From Gammaproteobacteria bacterium (GTDB taxonomy: Bacteria; Pseudomonadota; Gammaproteobacteria; UBA4575), in assembly GCA_028285655.1 (NCBI GenBank), contig JANQOT010000009.1, forward strand, positions 1 through 54,954: DNA of 54,954 nucleotides. The letters run 5' to 3'. A program made the position numbers and the translations under genes. Below are positions 1,976 to 28,726 of the stretch, one piece after another. A model generated the notes under the pieces. That model saw only the letters and a program-made list of their open reading frames with translations, was not told the origin of the DNA and made no database searches. Position 1 is the first letter of the stretch. Each line of letters begins with the position of its first letter.

Positions 1976-2179
1976 GGCACAAAAAGTAACGTTTTTAACT
2001 GGTTAAAAACCAGAGATTGTCTAAGGCAAATTCATAGTTTGACATATTTTGAATTCGCAGTCTTGTTGTGAGTTAAGTCATATTATGATGTATCGACCGG
2101 GTTGGTGGCTAAAAAATGTTACGGTATACAAAGGGTGCAAAAAGTATAATTCCGGACCTGGATATTGTCTGTTTTCAGC

Positions 2180-2265
2180 CAATGAGCAGGAGGTGGCTAT
2201 ACATACAAGGATGCACGCAGGCATAGCGATGTGCGAATAAGAGCCTGAATCAGGGAAAACGCTAA
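2180..2265 (+). repeat. Degenerate B-type repeat(s), left edge of island 1
   Basis: GAGCAGGAGGTGGC and GCAC...GTGCGAATAAGAGCCTGAATCAGGG resemble the B consensus GAGCAC-loop-GTGCGAATGARAGTT-hairpin. Confidence 0.4.
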
Positions 2266-2332
2266 CCTAATGTATAGTGCAAGCTATGCAATGCAGTGAA
2301 CTTTAATTGCCGAAGTCTTGTCTTAAATGCGT

Positions 2333-2442
2333 GTGCGGGAGAGCACGGATGCTCCGAAGTTGCTACCCCTTTTAATAGGAGTGCAGTGCCAAGAAAATTC
2401 TCCCGCATACCTTGCGAGCTTATTTCTGAAATCAAGCGACCA
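2333..2442 (+). repeat. Degenerate B+A composite repeat 3' of the SnoaL-like cassette
   Basis: GAGCACGGATGCTCCGAAGTTGC is a B-like core. It is enclosed by the inverted repeat TGCGGGAGA (2334) / TCTCCCGCA (2399). AAGCGACCAC lies next to the stop codon at 2443. Confidence 0.4.
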
Positions 2443-2880
2443 CTAATTTTGTTTGATCATATCCATATGGCCAAGTTGCTTCATTGATGTGTAGTTATCC
2501 CACTCAACCCAGGCTTCTGCAATTGTCTCGTTTTTAATTCGATAAATAGCTAGATACTCTATATCCATATCTTTACACGATGCAGGATATGGCCCCATTT
2601 TCCCGAGCTGTGTGCCTTTAAACTGTTGGCGGGCTGCGACTTTATCACCCTCGGCGACTAAATCTAAAATTTTTTCCCTGAATTTCGGAAAAATGGATTC
2701 TTGCGTGCGTAAGTACTGTATTAAATCTCCCCGGCATTTAACAGCGGGTTCTCCTGCAGCAAAGCTATGTCTTGCGAAATCTTCTGCTACCATGTTGTCG
2801 AGCATATCCCAATCGCGCTTGTTAACAGCATTTATAAAATTCTGCACTAGCGCTTTGTTAGATTCATTATTGTCGTTCAT
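2443..2880 (-). CDS. SnoaL-like / predicted ester cyclase family protein
   Basis: 145 aa. LVQNFINAVNKRDWDMLDNMVAEDF...IAEAWVEWDNYTSMKQLG is typical of the NTF2-fold SnoaL/ester-cyclase family. ATG start. Confidence 0.75.
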   Translation of the reverse strand: MNDNNESNKALVQNFINAVNKRDWDMLDNMVAEDFARHSFAAGEPAVKCRGDLIQYLRTQESIFPKFREKILDLVAEGDKVAARQQFKGTQLGKMGPYPASCKDMDIEYLAIYRIKNETIAEAWVEWDNYTSMKQLGHMDMIKQN

Positions 2881-2924
2881 ATTTTCTATAAGTTACCTAT
2901 TCATTTTCTACTTACGACCAATTA

Positions 2925-3028
2925 GTGAGCACAAGGAGGTGCGAATGAGAGTTGCATCAGGGACGATGCTTCCGTTTAGAATTACTGCTCGCTTCAATGA
3001 CCGCTTTCGGGCCAAAAGCGGTCATTCG
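2925..3028 (+). repeat. B+A composite structured repeat (reference copy)
   Basis: Hairpin 1 is GCAC/AAGGAG/GTGC (2929-2942), followed by the linker GAATGAGAGTT. Hairpin 2 is GCATC/AGGGAC/GATGC (2954-2969). The A module is the perfect 12-bp palindrome AATGACCGCTTT-cgggcca-AAAGCGGTCATT (2996-3026). The stop codon of CDS 3022..3438 lies inside it. Confidence 0.8.
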
Positions 3029-3438
3029 TTTTCTTTAAATAATTCAACACAATGCATCACACACTCTTCACAAATTTGTGCGTTATCCCCTAGCCAAACT
3101 AGCCGACCAGCTTCTTTTTCAGAACACTTACAAAACTCACAGTAGCTATCTTCCTCAGTGCTTTCTATTCCTCGTTTCAGTTTTCTGGTAAAACGTGGAC
3201 TAGAGGCAACCTTTTCTTTTGATGGCGATATCCTTAATGAATCATCAAAATTAACAGATTCTTCAAGCCACTCTATGTATAGCAACCCAGGCTCTTTATC
3301 AGATATTCCAGATGCTCTAACTAGCGGCATTTCGTCTGAAACACCAAATGAAATATGAAGTTGTTTAAGTGTGCTAGGGCCAACAGTTGCTATTCTTTTT
3401 TCATTTAAATAAACATCGTAAAAACAATTTTTATCCAT
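3022..3438 (-). CDS. Hypothetical protein with C-terminal ClpX-type C4 zinc finger
   Basis: 138 aa. The C-terminal CEFCKCSEKEAGRLVWLGDNAQICEECVMHCVELF matches the ClpX N-terminal zinc-binding pattern (CxxC...CxxC). The N-terminal ~95 aa have no recognisable family. Confidence 0.65.
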   Translation of the reverse strand: MDKNCFYDVYLNEKRIATVGPSTLKQLHISFGVSDEMPLVRASGISDKEPGLLYIEWLEESVNFDDSLRISPSKEKVASSPRFTRKLKRGIESTEEDSYCEFCKCSEKEAGRLVWLGDNAQICEECVMHCVELFKENE

Positions 3439-3490
3439 AAATATTATCCTGGGATGCAGTACAGTAACTAGAATTATATGTTCGGTTTAC

Positions 3491-3510
3491 GGCCAATAGC
3501 GGTCATTCAG
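3491..3510 (+). repeat. A-module repeat (solo)
   Basis: GGCCAATAGCGGTCATTCAG lies 6 nt from the stop of CDS 3516..4934. Compare GGCCAAAAGCGGTCATTC at 3011, 24981 and 25471. Confidence 0.6.
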
Positions 3511-3515
3511 GATTA

Positions 3516-4934
3516 TTATCCGAAACGTCTTAGCCATTTGAATTTTGATAGTGTATACGGAGGGTATCGCAACGGTAAATCGCCAAACGTGGATTTTATT
3601 AAAACGGCTCTAGCATGACTAAATGTAATGAAACTATTTCTGCCATGGTAAGCGCCAACACCACTTTGACCGACACCTCCAAATGGTAGATCAGGTACAA
3701 CCATATGCATAAGTACATCGTTAATACAAACACCTCCCGAACTTGTCTCTGAAATTACATTGTTTTGAACTTCTTTATCTTTAGTGAATAGATATAATGC
3801 TAATGGCTTAGGCCGACTATTCACGAAACCAATTGCATCTTCGATGCCTGAAACCGATATTACAGGAAGAATAGGCCCAAAGATCTCTTCGCTCATAATT
3901 AGCGAATCAGTGGACACTTTGGTCAACACTGTAGGTTCGATATAGAGATCGGCTTCATCCGAGTGGCCACCACTCACAATTTCTCCACTGTCCATCAACC
4001 CGATGAGTCGTTCAAAATGTGCTTGATTGACTATCCTCGGATAATCAGGGCTTGTCTTCGGATCATTTCCATAAAAATCCGCCACTACCGACTTGATATG
4101 CTGCGTGAGATCATCAATTATTGATTCATGAGCCAGTACATAATCTGGAGCAACGCACGTCTGTCCAGCGTTGACAAATTTCCCCCATACGATTCGTTTA
4201 GCTGCTACACGTATATCGGCATCACTATTCACAATACACGGACTTTTGCCACCTAGTTCAAGTGTGACTGGCGTAAGGTGCTTAGCTGCGGCAGCCATTA
4301 CAATTTTGCCCACACGAGGGCTGCCTGTGAAGAAGATATGGTCAAAGCGTTGTTCGAGTAAATTGCTGGCTACATCTGCCCCTCCCTGTATAACTCTGAT
4401 GGCATCTGAATCCATATATTCAGGGATAATCTCCGCGAGTAATGATGAGGTGTTTGGCGTGAGTTCTGACGGTTTTATGAGCACGCAATTACCGGCTGCA
4501 ATAGCGCCAATTAGTGGCGATACAATCAACATAAAGGGGTAGTTCCATGGCGCCATAATTAATACGACACCAAGCGGTTCATATATAATCTTGCTTTTGC
4601 CTGGCTGATTGTCTATTGGTGTCGAGACAATTTCTGGTTTCATCCAGTTTTTTAAATGTTTCAAAGCATGATTGATCTCATTAACGCACTCACCTGTCTC
4701 CGCTATGAATGATTCAAAGTTTGATTTTCTGAGATCCGCTCTAAGAGCAGCGAAGATTGCTTCCTCCTTTTCTATCGTCATTGCTTTTAATGACTTGAGT
4801 TGATCGATGCGCCATTTATAAGGGCGCGTCTTACGACTTTTAAACGTCGTATGCAAATTTGCTACTGTTCTTGCGAAATTGGGTTGAGACATGTCATTTA
4901 TTCTCACTTTTGAAGCAACTGAGTTTCTATACAT
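3516..4934 (-). CDS. NAD(P)+-dependent aldehyde dehydrogenase (class 3-like)
   Basis: 472 aa. ALDH motifs are present: ELGGKSP, the catalytic region GQTCVAPDY, and EEIFGPILP. The alternative ATG at 4892 (MSQPNF) would give 458 aa. Confidence 0.88.
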   Translation of the reverse strand: MYRNSVASKVRINDMSQPNFARTVANLHTTFKSRKTRPYKWRIDQLKSLKAMTIEKEEAIFAALRADLRKSNFESFIAETGECVNEINHALKHLKNWMKPEIVSTPIDNQPGKSKIIYEPLGVVLIMAPWNYPFMLIVSPLIGAIAAGNCVLIKPSELTPNTSSLLAEIIPEYMDSDAIRVIQGGADVASNLLEQRFDHIFFTGSPRVGKIVMAAAAKHLTPVTLELGGKSPCIVNSDADIRVAAKRIVWGKFVNAGQTCVAPDYVLAHESIIDDLTQHIKSVVADFYGNDPKTSPDYPRIVNQAHFERLIGLMDSGEIVSGGHSDEADLYIEPTVLTKVSTDSLIMSEEIFGPILPVISVSGIEDAIGFVNSRPKPLALYLFTKDKEVQNNVISETSSGGVCINDVLMHMVVPDLPFGGVGQSGVGAYHGRNSFITFSHARAVLIKSTFGDLPLRYPPYTLSKFKWLRRFG

Positions 4935-5034
4935 GACCTAACGATTCGGTGGTCTGAGGTAAATTATTCAAATAAAGTTTTTTAATTATGACTTACATCA
5001 ATTTATTACTTAAATGGGTTACACAGAGATTCAG

Positions 5035-5183
5035 CGAATATGAGCGCGTCTTCCCTGACGCGACTCCAATTCGCACTTCCCTGTGCTCAGGTACGAAAGC
5101 GGACCTTCAATGAATATGAGCGCGTCTTCCCTGACGCGACTCCAATTCGCACTTCCCTGTGCTCTGGCACGAAAGCGGTTATG
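5035..5183 (-). repeat. Two tandem B-type repeats in opposite orientation to those at 2925 and 24899
   Basis: A 53-nt stretch, gaatatgagcgcgtcttccctgacgcgactccaattcgcacttccctgtgctc, is present identically at 5036-5088 and 5112-5164 (period 76). Each copy is followed by ACGAAAGCGG. Confidence 0.85.
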
Positions 5184-5237
5184 CTGAATAATGTAGATCA
5201 GTATATTATAGAATGCTAATACACTATATTGTTTAAT

Positions 5238-5266
5238 ACCCGCTTTCGTCCCAAAGAAAACATTCG
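5238..5266. repeat. Degenerate A-module
   Basis: ACCCGCTTTCGTCCCAAAGAAAACATTCG resembles GACCGCTTTCGGGCCAAAAGCGGTCATTCG (2999-3028). CCCGCTTTCG is also the inverted complement of CGAAAGCGG at 5170. Confidence 0.4.
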
Positions 5267-5302
5267 ATTATGATAATAATATTCAGCCCGGAGTAGATAC
5301 GC

Positions 5303-6349
5303 ATGAACTACTATATTTATCTACCACTGTTTTATTTTTTACTAGTTAACAACTTTTTAATGGCGGGGGAAAATATTTCATATATGAACTCTGAGAAAGA
5401 GTTAATAGTGCTAGCGGCGCCTTTATCGGGTGATTTATATTACGCCAATCAGGTTGATGCTATATTTAATTTTCATATTGAGTATGTAAATCAAATAAAA
5501 GATCGCGATAATGTTTTAATTTTTGTAGATGAAAACACTTATGATGACTATGTCGAAAAAGTCGGAGAACAATACGTGGTGATAGCTCCGATGTTAGATA
5601 TTTGGATGCGTGATTTTAGTCTTTCTAACGTAATAGCGCCAGTCATGTTTCGATATACAGCTGCTGGTCAAGGGGGAGGTGATAGAGGACAGAAATATGC
5701 GGATACAGTCCAGGAACAGCTAGCTACAATCATAGAAGAGGCCGAACTAGAATTTAAGGAAACAAAATTACTAAACGATGGGGGAAATTTCGTTGATGAC
5801 TATCATGGGAATGTAGTAATAAGTACAAAATTTTTACGCGACAATAATATTTCTGAGAAACAAGCACGATCAGAGTTACAAAAGTTGATCAATATTAAAC
5901 ATGTGGCGTTTATAAATTCTGATGAGCAAGGCGGGCTAGAGCATGCAGACGGTGTGGTGGCATTTGTTGATAAGAATACAGTAATAATAAACTCATATGG
6001 CGAAGAAGGCTATTTAGCAAATTTACGTAGAGACTTGCAAAGAGGATTACCTGATGTGGTAATTCACGAAATTATAACTCCATACGACGATAGCGAAATT
6101 CACGACCGGCGGTTTAGCTCTGCTTGCGGGCTTTACACAAATGCACTTGTAACTCCTAAAAGAGTATATCTTCCACAGTTCGATATACCTCAGGATAAGA
6201 TTGCTATTCAACAAGTACAGCAAGCAACTACTCGGGAAGTAGTACCTGTTCCGTCTCACTATGTTTGCTCGATGGGTGGCGGTGTACGATGTATGTCTTG
6301 GCAATTAAGAGGACAAAATGCCAGTAAGCTTTTGGAATATTTTAATTAA
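5303..6349 (+). CDS. Agmatine deiminase / peptidyl-arginine deiminase (PAD_porph) family protein, predicted secreted
   Basis: 348 aa. Contains DIWMRD, GGNF, EHADG and the C-terminal catalytic-Cys motif GGGVRCMSWQ. The N-terminus is hydrophobic. GGAG lies 9 nt upstream of the ATG. Confidence 0.82.
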   Translation: MNYYIYLPLFYFLLVNNFLMAGENISYMNSEKELIVLAAPLSGDLYYANQVDAIFNFHIEYVNQIKDRDNVLIFVDENTYDDYVEKVGEQYVVIAPMLDIWMRDFSLSNVIAPVMFRYTAAGQGGGDRGQKYADTVQEQLATIIEEAELEFKETKLLNDGGNFVDDYHGNVVISTKFLRDNNISEKQARSELQKLINIKHVAFINSDEQGGLEHADGVVAFVDKNTVIINSYGEEGYLANLRRDLQRGLPDVVIHEIITPYDDSEIHDRRFSSACGLYTNALVTPKRVYLPQFDIPQDKIAIQQVQQATTREVVPVPSHYVCSMGGGVRCMSWQLRGQNASKLLEYFN

Positions 6350-6368
6350 GCCGACAGTTAAACTTTTT

Positions 6369-6462
6369 AATGACCGCTTTTGTTCGAAACCAGACATTAG
6401 TTCGCTTGCTATGCGGGCGCCATCCTTGGCGCCAACTTTCATTCGCGTATCCTTACGCTCAC
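6369..6462 (-). repeat. A+B composite repeat 3' of the plus-strand cassette
   Basis: AATGACCGCTTTTG starts 20 nt after the stop at 6349. The B part reads (reverse complement) GCGT/AAGGAT/ACGC, GAATGAAAGTT, GGCGCC/AAGGAT/GGCGCC. Both stems differ from the other copies but still pair. Confidence 0.75.
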
Positions 6463-6480
6463 GTGCTTGCACACATCTAT

Positions 6481-6535
6481 GAGTGCGAATTCAGGCGCTT
6501 GAAACGGGTCGGGAAGTGACCTTGCGAACGAGTAA
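6481..6535 (+). repeat. Partial B-type repeat
   Basis: GAGTGCGAATTCAGG...GGGTCGGGAAGTGACC retains the GTGCGAAT core and a GGGAAG-loop hairpin. It lies 3' of minus-strand CDS 6559..6792. Confidence 0.4.
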
Positions 6536-6558: not shown

Positions 6559-6792
6559 CTAACTTTGATTTTTGTAGTTTTGCAGGTATTCCAGAAACTC
6601 TTCTTCGACAATTTCGGTTTCTTCGACTGAAATATTATTTAGTCGGCGCTCAGGCATTTTGCGACGGTCCTTTTTGATCACCAATTCGCCCAGTTCCTTG
6701 CTTGAATCGCTTAACGTGCTGATAAAGTCTCTGCGGTCGCTTGTTGTCCGTCGCTCGTCCAGATCTTGATCTGTGTCCGCTTTTTCGCTCAA
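6559..6792 (-). CDS. Small Arg-rich hypothetical protein with ERRxxxDRR motif
   Basis: The track ORF 6559..6813 starts at TTG. An internal TTG at 6792 is preceded by AAGGAG with a 7-nt spacer. The protein shares GE(L/I)...RR...(P/D)(E/D)RR...EEF...Y with CDS 29145..29360. Confidence 0.45.
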   Translation of the reverse strand: MSEKADTDQDLDERRTTSDRRDFISTLSDSSKELGELVIKKDRRKMPERRLNNISVEETEIVEEEFLEYLQNYKNQS

Positions 6793-7064
6793 CGGTCTGC
6801 TCCTTTCTCTCAAAATTCTGAAGATTGTGTAGCCGGAGGGTTATCCCTCTTTAATTATTTTCTTAAGTATTACTTTTTTAAGTTTTTGATTATGTGATGC
6901 GATTGGCAGTTAGGTTTTTCGTCGCCAAGGGCTGTTCTGCATTAAATCCGGGAGCCCGGCCGTTAATAAGCGGTAGCGAAATAATCTAAACAGACTTGTT
7001 TTCTGTAACTTACCGAATCTTGTTGCAGTGTTACGGCAGGAGAATATAAATAATGATAAAACCA

Positions 7065-25470: not shown

Positions 25471-25490
25471 GGCCAAAAGCGGTCATTCAA
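25471..25490 (+). repeat. A-module repeat (solo)
   Basis: GGCCAAAAGCGGTCATTCAA lies 30 nt from the stop of CDS 25521..26654. It occupies the same position in the island as 3491-3510. Confidence 0.6.
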
Positions 25491-25520
25491 GTAATAACGA
25501 AAGTGATTACTTAGACGACG

Positions 25521-26654
25521 CTAAAAATATTTTCTTGCTAAATTCTTACATGTGCCATCAATTCCTGGGAACATAGTGGCTTCATTAATTCCCATTAAAT
25601 CTAACTCACGTAAGGCCTCATCACACATATTTGCATTTAAGTCATAAATTTTTAAAATTTTATTGCCGCTCTTCTGTTCAATATATTTTATTTCAAACTC
25701 AATGTCATGGATATTAGCGAAACTGACAACTGATTGTTGAGGCAATAATCTAGGATTATCAAATCCAGGCAGTTCATAAAACCAAAGCTGTTGTTCTGGA
25801 TGTAATATTACCGTGCTATTGAAATCAATTCTGCTCCAATTTGATCTATTAAACTCAAATATCCGCACATAGTTATCTCTGCTTGGTCGATCGGTCACAG
25901 TATATTTTGGATTTTGTTTTCTAGACCAGAACGAAAAAAATGCTGCTATAAACGGTGACTCAGTCCAATCAAGCAATGGAGTTGGGTGGCCGTGATGTTG
26001 TGCTAATGACAAAAATGAACTTAATTGTGTTGCATTATCCAAATCGTAAGTTCTGGGAAGCTGTGGGCTTAGGTATCGATGTAATCTTCGAAGGTCTTCA
26101 TCTAAAAACCTTACCAAATCGTTTCTACCTGTCCTATGAAACGTAGTATTTAGTTTGTACTTATTGTCCGCTACTCCTCGAAAAACTAACGCCGAATTTT
26201 CAAGTTTGGAAGATAGAATCTCAGATTTATATTCAGACCAATTTTCATATTTCGAATCCGGCTCATAGTTCTTAAAATTAAAATCTTTTCTAAGGCTAAA
26301 AGTACCGTTTGTATCGACATCGCTTCGCCAAGTACCATCTAGATATAATTGGCTATTCTCTTCTCGAATATTTCCTTCAAAATTTATAATATTAGGTACT
26401 GAATATCCTGTGGGATATTGGATTTCAGGGTACAGCTCAATAGGGTTATTTGCTTGTGCATCTAAGCGGTCGTCTTCAAAGTTAAATCTAAACCCATAGT
26501 ATGCGTACCTAGCTTCTGGAGATCCCTCTGCAAGGAATAGTCTTCCAACACTTGAATTATCCCGATCAATTGCAAGTGCAGTTACTCCATTGTTAGCGTT
26601 ATCTGGGGGACTTGCAAAACGACCCCACCATAGTCCGTTTACTTTATTTGGCAT
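25521..26654 (-). CDS. FRG domain-containing protein
   Basis: 377 aa. LVFRGVADNKYKLNTTFHR and LAQHHGHPTPLLDWTESPFIAAFF match the FRG-domain signature. The N-terminal ~150 aa are unassigned. The gene is very AT-rich. Confidence 0.75.
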   Translation of the reverse strand: MPNKVNGLWWGRFASPPDNANNGVTALAIDRDNSSVGRLFLAEGSPEARYAYYGFRFNFEDDRLDAQANNPIELYPEIQYPTGYSVPNIINFEGNIREENSQLYLDGTWRSDVDTNGTFSLRKDFNFKNYEPDSKYENWSEYKSEILSSKLENSALVFRGVADNKYKLNTTFHRTGRNDLVRFLDEDLRRLHRYLSPQLPRTYDLDNATQLSSFLSLAQHHGHPTPLLDWTESPFIAAFFSFWSRKQNPKYTVTDRPSRDNYVRIFEFNRSNWSRIDFNSTVILHPEQQLWFYELPGFDNPRLLPQQSVVSFANIHDIEFEIKYIEQKSGNKILKIYDLNANMCDEALRELDLMGINEATMFPGIDGTCKNLARKYF

Positions 26655-26719
26655 TTTAAATTGAATATATTGAAACTCTTTTTCTTATCTACCTACTTTA
26701 ACACGTACTATTCTAAATA

Positions 26720-26883
26720 AATGTCTGCTATGGGTCGTTAGCAGACATTCATTGAATATGAACGCGTCCTCCCTGACGCGACTCCAATTCGCACGTCCAT
26801 GTGCTCTGGTACGAAAGCGGGCATTCGCAATTATGCTCGTGTCCTTCATGACACGACTTCAATTCGCATATTCCCATGCTCAG
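26720..26883 (-). repeat. Hairpin plus two tandem B-type repeats in opposite orientation, right edge of island 2
   Basis: AATGTCTGC-tatgggtcgtta-GCAGACATT is the hairpin. B copy 26754-26828 ends in ACGAAAGCGGGCATTCGC. B copy 26829-26883 has stems GCAT/ATGC and TCGTGTC/GACACGA. Confidence 0.8.
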
Positions 26884-27031
26884 ATCAAAAACTGATTTTT
26901 CTATTTTATCCTGAAATTGGTTTCAATATGCAATATTTGCTCAGAATTAACGAGCATGGGGAGGGATTGTCTATGGAAGAGAGGGTAAACCGAGCACCAA
27001 ACTAAATTCAGTGCTCGGTTTAGACGAGAGT

Positions 27032-28726
27032 TTATTCAGCGCCTTCTCCGTCGATCTGGAACAGGGCGCCCAGGTTGATGCTGCCATGGACGTCCGGCGA
27101 TTGAATGTTGGTCAGGTCGGCAGGGTTGCCGCGATTGAGGTTGGAAGCGGTATCGTCCGGCGGGAATAGCACCAGCGATTCCAGAAATGCCTGAATATTC
27201 TGGCGGCCTTCTTCGCCCAGGCGTTCGTAGGCCACACGCGATTCGGTGGCTTCGCCGCCGTGTCGACGAATAACGGCATCCAGGTTAATGCTGCGACCGT
27301 CATGTCCATAGGGGGCGGTAGAGCCGACACCCCACAGCGGTTCGGTAACAAATTCAGTGACTACGGTACCGTCAAACTCGCGTTCGTGAAATGCCGGCCC
27401 TAAATCGTGCCGCTTTAAATCGGAATAAAAGTTGCGCACTACGAATTGTTCGCCGTTAGGAAGCAATTGCGGATAGGCGTCGCCGTCGTCCACTTCGCTA
27501 AACTGCGTGCTGGCAGTGGCAAATAGATTGTTGAAAATTCCCTGTGCCGGGTCGTAGGCGGTTTCGACATCGGCAATACGACGATCGCTTTGAATAGTCA
27601 TTCTTGGCGTATGACAAGTCGTGCAACCAATGTCCGCCATCAGACGTTTGCCCGTGCGGGCGGCCGCCGTGACTTTGTAGCGTCCGGGCTTGAAGTAATT
27701 AAGCAGATAAAATTCCAGGTGGTCGATAACTGCAGTATCGATTTCATTGCTAACGCCATCATTGTCGGGGTCAGCGTTAACGTCGCAGGTCGGCGGCCGC
27801 TCGAACTCATCCTGTGCAGGATCGTAATTAAAGCCGCTGGGGCTGGTCATGGCCTGTGGATTATCCGGGTCGGTTACGGCGCATAAGATCGGATCGACCG
27901 CCTGTAAACCCATTTCGTCTTTAAATGCACCGATGACGAACTCACGAATGGAAACCGTACCGCCCTGATGAAAAAACGGACGCACACGCAAATCTGCGTC
28001 CACGCCTTCCACTTGTGAGGTATCGATTTCACCATTGGGGCAGGCAGTAATAAAACCAAACGAAGTACGCTTGGCGCGCAACGGCGTGGTAACACAACGG
28101 TTACGTCGTTCGGCTAATGCCAATGCGCGATCGCGGCGTGCCCGTAGTCGTTGTGTCATCTCGTCGGCCAGTTGTTCAACAATACCCAGGCCAAACAAAT
28201 GCGGTGCGTCGCGACTGTCGGGGCGCGTATTCACATCGCCGCCAAAACCGGCAGATCCGCGCGGTCGACCATGGCAGGCTGCGCAGCTATCGGTTAAGCC
28301 GGCACCCAATGCTCGGTTTTGGGTGATGTCGCCGGTGGAATCAAGATTTACGCGCGGGCCGTTGCCTTCTGCGATCGAAAATTTACGTTGAAACAGTTGC
28401 CGGCCACGTCGAATGGAACGCGCCGGGTCGCGCTTTATTAAATAAACAGCCGAGCCGGGCGTATTAACGTCGCCGTGTCCGGCGCCGATCTGGTCAACCA
28501 GACTTTTACTGATACATCCGCCGGGAGCGTTAATTAATAAATTTTCATTGACCTTGTCGCAGGGAACCAGTTCGGCAAAATTGGGCTGCGGGTAAAAATA
28601 AAGTGCCAGACAGGTAACAAGAAAAAACGGGTAAAAATGATGTCGAACGTTTCGTTTAATATGGGTCTGATGCGTGAACAAGAGCATATTGGCTCTTGCT
28701 TGAATTAATTTCTCCTGTAGCGTCAT
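27032..28726 (-). CDS. Di-haem cytochrome c oxidoreductase, DUF1111 family
   Basis: 564 aa. Two CxxCH motifs (CAACHG, CTTCH). SCAACHGRPRGSAGFGGDV is a typical DUF1111 context. N-terminal TM/signal. Confidence 0.8.
   Translation of the reverse strand: MTLQEKLIQARANMLLFTHQTHIKRNVRHHFYPFFLVTCLALYFYPQPNFAELVPCDKVNENLLINAPGGCISKSLVDQIGAGHGDVNTPGSAVYLIKRDPARSIRRGRQLFQRKFSIAEGNGPRVNLDSTGDITQNRALGAGLTDSCAACHGRPRGSAGFGGDVNTRPDSRDAPHLFGLGIVEQLADEMTQRLRARRDRALALAERRNRCVTTPLRAKRTSFGFITACPNGEIDTSQVEGVDADLRVRPFFHQGGTVSIREFVIGAFKDEMGLQAVDPILCAVTDPDNPQAMTSPSGFNYDPAQDEFERPPTCDVNADPDNDGVSNEIDTAVIDHLEFYLLNYFKPGRYKVTAAARTGKRLMADIGCTTCHTPRMTIQSDRRIADVETAYDPAQGIFNNLFATASTQFSEVDDGDAYPQLLPNGEQFVVRNFYSDLKRHDLGPAFHEREFDGTVVTEFVTEPLWGVGSTAPYGHDGRSINLDAVIRRHGGEATESRVAYERLGEEGRQNIQAFLESLVLFPPDDTASNLNRGNPADLTNIQSPDVHGSINLGALFQIDGEGAE

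Follow-up and report, generated by a model that had tools for sequence, protein, structure and literature searches.

Palindromic sites at the borders of relocating single-gene modules in flexible DNA of uncultured marine Gammaproteobacteria: a possible cassette system

How do unrelated single genes come to stand side by side, closed by copies of one short palindrome, on a stretch of chromosome that encodes no recombinase? The question is raised by a 54,954-nucleotide (nt) stretch of DNA from an uncultured gammaproteobacterium (contig JANQOT010000009.1 of assembly GCA_028285655.1; hereafter the window, meaning the whole stretch). A first-pass annotation, made from the letters alone, had described positions 2180–6535 as an island of single-gene cassettes separated by a structured repeat, and had likened the layout to integron cassette arrays, to repetitive extragenic palindromes and their mosaics (REP and bacterial interspersed mosaic elements, BIME), or to the subterminal hairpins of insertion sequences of the IS200/IS605 type. 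The window is otherwise ordinary chromosomal core DNA of a marine organism, carrying by Pfam dnaB, alr, rnr, purA, hisZ, hflKC, hflX, miaA, mutL, amiB, pgi, and panBC, and the closest named relatives of its PurA are metagenome-assembled genomes (MAGs) labelled Candidatus Thioglobus (75% identity). We find that the repeats are restricted to two accessory islands of the window (2162–6535 and 24406–26895), that the principal repeat, here called the A site, coincides with the borders of gene modules that occupy different places in related genomes, and that similarity between copies of a module breaks off at the centre of the palindrome. We tentatively read A as a recombination site.

The A site is a near-palindrome of 32–33 bp, GAATGACCGCTTT / TGGCCG / AAAGCGGTCATTC, in which two 13-bp arms surround a GGCC-centred core; a single asymmetric position makes it directional. 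The A core AAAGCGGTCATTC has 12 matches in the window at up to two mismatches, compared with 1.9 expected from shuffles, and the six best of them all lie within 2995–6380 or 24988–25488. The 18-mer GAATGACCGCTTTTRGCC gave six matches (0.1 expected), and a 25-nt pattern of a second element, B, gave five (0 expected). Five of the nine island genes are followed by an A site, compared with none of the 41 core genes (Fisher p = 6e-5). The claim that structured repeats stand at the ends of the cassette genes therefore holds, with counts far above those in shuffled sequence and a distribution confined to the two islands. As single strands, perfect A copies form strong folds (-13.3 kcal/mol, z -4.8).

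In the first island, a minus-strand array runs from a non-coding head through an aldehyde dehydrogenase gene, an A site, a zinc-finger gene, an A-B junction, a SnoaL gene, a B element with a half-site, and the CNNM gene to a decayed A. The aldehyde dehydrogenase gene (3516–4934, minus strand; PF00171, E 5e-94) is the first of this array, followed by the gene with a ClpX-type zinc finger (3022–3438, minus; Pfam) and the SnoaL-like gene (2443–2880, minus; PF07366, E 5e-25). On the other side of the head lies a PAD_porph (agmatine-deiminase-like) gene (5303–6349, plus; PF04371, E 4.5e-29). Of the five unrelated genes described at first, these four have Pfam families, but the fifth, a putative Arg-rich open reading frame (ORF) of 84 amino acids (6559–6813), matched none. 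An A site had been placed behind every cassette gene; this is true of the zinc-finger, aldehyde dehydrogenase, and PAD genes, but the SnoaL gene and the Arg-rich ORF lack an intact copy. The site at 2995–3027 (minus) is a perfect palindrome with 13-bp arms, the source of the fold energy given above, and its TGA (3022–3024) is the stop codon of the zinc-finger gene, as the first-pass annotation had noted. The site at 3478–3508 (minus), 7 nt after the aldehyde dehydrogenase stop, has a weakly complementary right arm. The PAD site (6368–6399, sequence match) lies 18 nt after the stop and on the plus strand, and A therefore follows the orientation of its gene, on either strand. Two partial sites bracket CNNM on the minus strand. 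At 2162–2184, an A centre and right arm (TTGGCTG-AAAACAGACAAT) mark the border between the variable island and the conserved CNNM unit, as judged from BLAST boundaries and from alignment, in which similarity to the related contigs L003, L021, and L006 starts here. At 842–860, 56 nt past the CNNM stop, lies a decayed left arm and centre (GGATAATCGCTTTTTGAAC), orthologous by alignment to an intact A after CNNM in four relatives. The AT-richness ascribed to the island is present (GC 0.38–0.43, with 0.48–0.51 on the cytochrome side) but modest, the CNNM side having a GC content of 0.41.

To see the site beyond the window, related contigs (numbered L) were reached through homologues of window proteins; all are metagenome or MAG contigs. 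Arrays are present in L003, L016, L018, L019, L021, and L029. Sites were found with a 19-mer of the left arm, and at up to four mismatches in 146 kb (the window, L003, L016, L018, L019, and L021) this gave 43–44 A sites. None lies inside a called gene, 35 of 44 have a co-oriented stop codon at -8 to +150 nt, and 10 supply the stop codon themselves (the TGA of AATGAC). In L016 there are about 20 sites in 20 kb, one behind almost every small gene. Repeats scattered through core intergenic DNA, which would have spoken against cassettes, were not found in the core DNA sampled: no A site occurs among the 41 core genes of the window, in the 10-kb rnr-to-DUF5658 block of L018, or in the syntenic 15-kb purA-to-DHOR block of L023. 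The cargo includes SnoaL, GNAT, glyoxalase, and isochorismatase proteins and many small unknown proteins. Across the sites, the left arm and centre are well conserved and the right side is variable, an asymmetry that is partly one of ascertainment because detection used the left-arm 19-mer. Of 22 well-formed sites, 10 have GACC in the left arm opposite GGAC in the right, and 11 have a T.G pair on the sense strand at the asymmetric position.

The cassette-like behaviour proposed in the first-pass annotation is supported, in that single modules have changed place. Copies of the zinc-finger gene and its A site were found in five chromosomal settings, at 82–88% protein identity: between the aldehyde dehydrogenase and SnoaL genes in the window, within a long array 9 kb from CNNM in L016, abutting the tRNA-Leu 3′ end by rnr in L018 (the locus of island 2 in the window), adjoining a DUF3179/HvfC/metG block in L019, and as the fifth module of a headed array in L029. 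At the DNA level, the L018 and window copies of this module are 89% identical, compared with about 74% for the syntenic core. A second module, encoding a 67-amino-acid membrane protein, is 96% identical in the arrays of L029 and L018, where its neighbours differ. The loci are variable: the CNNM neighbourhood carries entirely different genes in every relative examined, and the interval from tRNA-Leu to DHOR (window 19625 to DHOR at 27032) has completely different gene content in the window, L018, and L023.

The ends of similarity between module copies fall inside the A sites. For the CNNM unit, similarity among the window, L003, L021, and L006 begins at the centre and right arm of the upstream site. 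In L003 this upstream site has an ordinary left arm, behind aioA, as its left partner; the window and L021 have a B element there, and L006 has a site in inverted orientation. The similarity stops after the left arm and centre of the downstream site, beyond which the right arms differ. The 67-amino-acid module shows 97–98% identity from the upstream right arm to the downstream left arm, with unrelated outer flanks; what differences there are concentrate around both centres, to within about 8 nt. The zinc-finger module behaves in the same way; GGT(A/T)AG, immediately beyond the centre, is common to three of its five copies, so that the resolution of the breakpoints is about ±8 nt. Since the similarity of all three units ends at site centres, the exchanged unit is a right arm, a leader, an ORF, and a left arm. 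Breakpoints at the centre of a palindrome fit neither integrons nor IS200/IS605 elements.

Two further elements accompany A. The B element is 63 nt long and consists of two hairpins with TCCCT-type loops, joined by the linker ACTYYMATTCGC. In the alignment of B copies, pairing holds in 87% of cells, and changes on both sides are seen in 7 of 12 pairs; none of 500 shuffles matched the observed percentage paired, number of cells changed on both sides, or covariation score, one of 500 attained the observed count of pairs changed on both sides, and slid controls were 15–43% paired. A covariance model found 19 copies (nine in the window, two in L018, five in L021, and three in L029) and none in L003, L016, or L019. 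Because B is always followed by an A centre and right arm, it stands in for the A left arm, and an A-B junction is thus two successive sites around a gene-less mini-module; tandem copies have a 76-nt period. The first-pass rule that B follows A is borne out at 2913–2975 (minus; 70.5 bits, with covariation and fold; TCCCT-type loops and linker ACTCTCATTCGC) and at 6411–6474 (plus; 69 bits), after the PAD site, but the A site of the aldehyde dehydrogenase gene has no B. A weaker copy (2205–2268, minus; 48 bits) forms the left half of the site before CNNM, with the same arrangement in L021, and a possible degenerate inverted B after the Arg-rich ORF (6480–6535, minus), containing GAATTCGCAC on the minus strand, was seen by eye only and was missed by the covariance model.

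A tandem pair of B units on the plus strand (5036–5183; units at 5040–5102 and 5116–5178, 75.4 and 72.4 bits), each followed by an A centre and right arm, had been taken for an inverted copy at the far end of the island. The pair is inverted as described, lying antisense to the minus-strand genes downstream and on the opposite strand to their B copies, but it is the head of the minus-strand array rather than the end of the island. It folds, and it aligns with three other arrays, so that the same non-coding head of about 190 nt, two B units antisense to the downstream genes plus a terminal palindrome, opens four arrays from three genomes. In L021, the same frame from head to CNNM encloses a cytochrome b561 gene, a GerE-family gene, and a DUF4405 gene instead. 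Next to the head in the window lies the C module (5184–5235), an AT-rich stretch of about 50 nt with a perfect TATAAT, recognized by reading the sequence. It stands between two inward-facing A-type sites, where the orientation of the cassettes switches, and is closed by an inverted A-type site with a decayed left arm (5236–5275, minus; inverted-repeat listing and sequence reading). Homologues lie between inverted sites in L018 (8346–8395) and L016 (17651–17700), and C may be a promoter module for the arrays. A promoter and terminator scan of the island returned no more than chance-level predictions.

We propose, at a probability of roughly 40%, that A serves as a recombination site of the core type, recombined at its centre by an enzyme that is encoded elsewhere and acts in trans, and that it is probably also an mRNA 3′ hairpin. 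The observed modules comprise the right arm of one site, a short leader, one ORF, and the left arm of the next, and they stand end to end in arrays at several hot spots (beside CNNM, from tRNA-Leu to DHOR, and elsewhere). An array starts with a head of two antisense B units and a terminal palindrome, with C between inverted sites, or with both. In the proposed scheme, strands would be exchanged in the central overlap of A, so that a single module could leave or enter an array whole. The enzyme would not be encoded with the arrays; it would be supplied in trans, as host XerCD may be for the dif modules of Acinetobacter or a distant integron integrase (IntI) for attC clusters. The A site would probably double as a hairpin at the 3′ end of the cassette mRNA, and B would be a 76-nt module without a gene, whose role depends on its structure; that it stands at the heads suggests a part in array expression or in marking the insertion end.

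Several observations weigh against this proposal. No recombinase is linked to any array head. A right side that does not fold, GGTAAGCGAC, is common to 12 of the 43 A sites, and covariation of the A arms is weak, which bears on whether a hairpin or a duplex would be the working form. For these two reasons, the hairpin is not claimed here as the selected form, and the reading that A is maintained as a hairpin was set aside because of the weak covariation. The breakpoint data come from only three modules, at about ±8 nt. Finally, all contigs are metagenomic and mis-joins at shared repeats are possible; to be set against this, the repeats are only about 32 bp long and six independent assemblies all give coherent arrays.

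The absence of a linked enzyme had been noted from the start and is confirmed. Of 50 window ORFs scanned with Pfam, none has a recombinase or transposase domain, and no IntI, RAYT (the transposase associated with REP elements), or Y1 transposase is present in the window. No Phage_integrase domain adjoins the heads in L021, L029, L016, or L018. The only recombinase in about 190 kb is a P4-type tyrosine integrase (Arm-DNA-bind_3 plus Phage_integrase; L029 1–1278), 6.4 kb from the head and separated from it by a Fur/ZrgA/ABC metal operon. Integrases of the P4 type normally mobilize entire islands at tRNA genes. The window has three copies of the 3′ end of tRNA-Leu(CAG), TCCTCTCCTGGGCACCA, at 19625–20062, with a 163-nt period and a small hairpin after each; the copies look like stacked attachment-site scars of repeated integration at the tRNA. 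From the integrase and the three stacked 3′ ends, it follows that classical integrase-driven islands use the same tRNA-Leu hot spot; they do not account for exchange at the level of modules. In Rfam 15, only two tRNAs reached the gathering score, and nothing relevant appeared at E up to 5 in either island.

A serious rival, in our judgement only somewhat less probable, is that A, B, and C are selfish or RNA-stabilizing palindromes of the REP/BIME kind, which spread by themselves, perhaps with the aid of a distant RAYT gene, and build up where flexible DNA is under little constraint. The reshuffling of modules would then be a by-product of homologous, microhomology-mediated, or hairpin-break-induced recombination among near-identical copies, with no dedicated site-specific system. 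Much of the layout agrees with this. Like REP elements, A sites are short palindromes just 3′ of genes and strictly extragenic (0 of 44 in coding sequence, 35 of 44 behind a co-oriented stop), they form mosaics with other motifs, here A, B, and C, and they are probably hairpins at mRNA 3′ ends; the composite of A and B has a strong RNA fold (z -3.3), and in 11 of the 22 well-formed sites the T.G pair lies on the sense strand. Some orthologous sites have kept their complementarity through lineage-specific, compensatory arm changes (after CNNM in L006; GTCTGC/GCAGAC variants). The rival also accommodates arrays without a linked recombinase, and cleavage of a hairpin by SbcCD would be expected to leave breaks at the palindrome tip.

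Other features set A apart from that class. REP elements are dispersed and occur in core operons too, whereas A is confined to flexible arrays, with none in the core intergenic DNA sampled in the window, L018, and L023. Elements mobilized by RAYT (REPINs) carry the tetranucleotide GTAG, conserved at the 5′ end, and their cognate RAYT gene lies between REPs; A starts with GAATGAC, no RAYT occurs in about 190 kb, and no Y1_Tnp-type protein is present in the window or among the called genes of six related loci. Many A sites do not fold and yet conserve the left arm and centre, with weak arm covariation overall, so that sequence is kept without hairpin potential; ten overlap the stop codon exactly; and copies coincide with the borders of relocating modules. 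An identity of 13–19 nt is, moreover, short for RecA-dependent exchange. A classical REP/RAYT family was accordingly rejected, given the missing GTAG, the missing RAYT, and the absence from the core operons sampled.

An unlikely alternative is that the arrays are clusters of attC sites lacking integron integrases (CALINs), in which A would be a very short and divergent attC, with GAC/GTC for AAC/GTT, recombined as a folded single strand by a distant IntI. The resemblance to integron arrays and CALINs is considerable: compact, mostly promoter-less and mostly co-oriented single-ORF units, each ending in an imperfect palindrome that often holds the stop codon (a stop codon within the 5′ end of the site is common for attC), cargo of the kind typical of chromosomal integrons, the same cassette at different places, and a conserved non-coding region at one array end. 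In addition, an unrelated contig of 57% GC has a canonical attC directly before a near copy of a variant of A, the type-II form. The sites themselves do not correspond. An attC is an imperfect hairpin of about 55–140 nt that has extrahelical bases and whose spacer is unpaired and loop variable; A is 32–33 bp long, a near-perfect palindrome or non-folding, with neither unpaired spacer nor extrahelical bases and with a conserved centre. In integrons the boundary lies at the 3′ end of the site and the whole attC travels with the upstream gene, whereas A breakpoints are central and right arms differ. The integron core site GTTRRRY (R′) pairs with RYYYAAC (R″), and IntI exchanges strands between core bases 1 and 2 (PMC8876359). 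The first-pass annotation had noted the lack of canonical R boxes in the island, and the wider search agrees: RYYYAAC occurs within -20 to +25 nt of the site start in 0 of 43 A sites, with no complementary GTTRRRY partner, and the equivalent positions read GAATGAC / GTCATTC. Unlike integrons, the arrays run in both orientations at several loci per chromosome, and, whereas a complete integron has intI with attI and a promoter beside its first cassette, no integrase adjoins the heads here, which are non-coding. The identification of A as attC was rejected on core, length, bulges, centre, and breakpoints alike.

Of the three comparisons made at the outset, that with IS200/IS605 is the least supported, and it is improbable that the repeats are ends or remnants of transposable elements, whether of that type or miniature inverted-repeat elements, with the genes as passengers or merely lying between insertions. 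The palindromes do resemble subterminal hairpins beside gene ends, a single-strand mechanism would be possible, long forms of A with 10–50 nt between the arms exist, and B is tandemly amplified. An IS200/IS605 element encodes a Y1 HUH transposase, with or without TnpB, has subterminal hairpins that differ between its left and right ends, and inserts on the 3′ side of a set tetra- or pentanucleotide. Here, no Y1 transposase or TnpB was found at any locus, there is a single site type without distinct ends, and neither conserved flanks, a conserved target tetranucleotide, nor flanking target duplications are seen; the shared unit is a gene plus half-sites rather than a palindrome plus flanks, with breakpoints inside the palindrome. 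A derivation of A from IS200/IS605 was discarded on the missing transposase and the single site type. Very improbable, lastly, is an inverted pair of DNA-uptake signals doubling as a terminator, with exchange by natural transformation: such pairs do sit downstream of genes in Pasteurellaceae and Neisseria, and the right arm AAAGCGGTC may resemble the Apl-type uptake sequence ACAAGCGGTC, but uptake signals are spread genome-wide, coding DNA included, whereas here no copy lies in coding or core DNA and the lineage is unrelated to those groups.

Among known systems, the dif modules of Acinetobacter offer a parallel to the proposal of a recombination site served in trans. The A sequence is presumably unlike dif, the comparison being with E. 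coli dif; the organism's own dif site lies outside the window. As in dif modules, one or a few genes lie between short two-arm inverted sites and are reshuffled in many contexts with breakpoints in the sites, and no recombinase is linked; dif modules lack one because the host enzyme is thought to act in trans. The Acinetobacter modules, on plasmids and chromosomes, are bounded by pdif (XerC/XerD) sites (PMC6449649, PMC13141974, PMC12907356), which are 28 bp long (11 + 6 + 11), related to chromosomal dif, and variable in the centre (PMC6449649). In contrast, A is built as 13 + 6–7 + 13 with a conserved centre, it follows gene orientation, and its arrays are chromosomal and furnished with heads, B, and C. 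A different likeness concerns B. Its antisense strand, which is the array-gene strand at the heads, carries GGA in the two hairpin loops and the linker; since each B thus has three GGA motifs, the tandem pair carries six, followed by a strong palindrome. GGA motifs in hairpin loops are the rule in Csr/Rsm small RNAs. Unlike those RNAs, B has no Rfam Csr/Rsm match (E up to 5) and occurs in the opposite orientation between cassettes too; counts of G.U versus A.C pairs in B did not single out one strand.

Searches farther afield set limits on the distribution of the elements. The exact B pattern had two matches in species-representative genomes, both chance matches in Actinobacteria, and two in metagenome contigs, both inside coding sequence of an MMPL-type transporter, with no true B in either collection. 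BLAST of A against plasmids and phages gave chance-level matches only, and the literature, searched for the sequences and for systems of a comparable kind, yielded no relevant report. A few true A sites occur on viral contigs (L008, L011, and L012), where a scan found no B. On the IMG/VR contig L008 (1465–5900), several A-type sites lie by an AAA_21 ATPase and DUF4435 gene pair, a PARIS-like defence pair, and a Dam-type methylase gene; island 2 of the window likewise holds an FRG-domain gene, and the arrays may carry defence genes. A looser palindrome-core pattern picked up hairpins in contigs of 56–60% GC. Single copies between convergent genes in L025, L026, and L027 are probably ordinary terminators and were set aside; only L024 and L028 looked related. 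At L028 11415–13090 (= L024 240–1830; 57% GC, near lambda-like tail genes), a canonical attC (GCCTGAC...GTTAGGG) stands immediately before GACTGCTTTTGGCCGTTAGCCGAC, a near copy of type-II A, with two further GCTTTTGGCCG motifs within 1.6 kb; this site may link the A motif to true integron arrays of another lineage. Ordinary contexts without A sites surround the SnoaL gene of L022 and a His-rich gene of Thalassotalea. In L022, a more distant relative, the SnoaL gene ends in AAATGACCGCT, with AAAGCAGACC about 80 nt further on (2091–2225), which may be the remnant of an A site with a long insert.

The second island of the window (24406–26895) has the same layout as the first. A B element (24406–24468, minus; 54.4 bits) lies between a His-rich and a GNAT gene. 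The adhesin-E-like gene is followed by an A site (24970–25000, minus; sequence match) with a B next to it (24887–24949, minus; 77.2 bits). A type-II A site (GAATGACCGCTTTTGGCCGGTAAGCGAC; 25460–25488, minus) follows the FRG-domain gene; it was found by sequence match and does not fold. The island has its own head on the plus strand (26720–26895), a palindromic A-type site (26720–26750) with two B units (26758–26820 and 26833–26895) antisense to the minus-strand genes, identified by the covariance model and by the head alignment. The His-rich protein of 113 amino acids (24494–24835) has relatives of at least 90% identity in Oleiphilus and Thalassotalea and belongs to a cluster of 106; in Thalassotalea agarivorans, as in the window, its gene has cytochrome b561 and polyketide_cyc2 genes nearby. 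Because of these like neighbours, some of island 2 may represent an ancient, conserved gene neighbourhood and not cassettes. In the first island, a long imperfect inverted repeat (GTGTGCGGGAGAGCACGGATGCTCC / GGAGTGCAGTGCCAAGAAAATTCTCCCGCATAC; 2331–2412) between the SnoaL stop and a B module is unrelated to A, B, and C.

Integrons are the textbook route by which bacteria stockpile and reshuffle single genes, and the dif modules of Acinetobacter are, to our knowledge, the only other well-known gene modules bounded by sites. The arrays described here could, though we hold this tentatively, belong to a previously undescribed cassette system of uncultured marine Gammaproteobacteria, with a 32-bp GGCC-centred site, B modules, several headed arrays, and an unlinked recombinase. 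If so, it would be a functional analogue of the integron that uses neither attC nor a linked IntI, and a third, unrelated type of site would mean that cassette-style genome plasticity arose more than once. Should the palindromes prove instead to be REP/BIME-like, they would provide an unusually clear case of extragenic palindromes serving as seams for swaps of accessory genes. The site type lies at several chromosomal loci of abundant uncultured marine bacteria and is invisible to integron-finding software; the 19-nt left arm and centre, the B model, and the head offer a handle for mining this flexible gene pool and make the search for the enzyme tractable.

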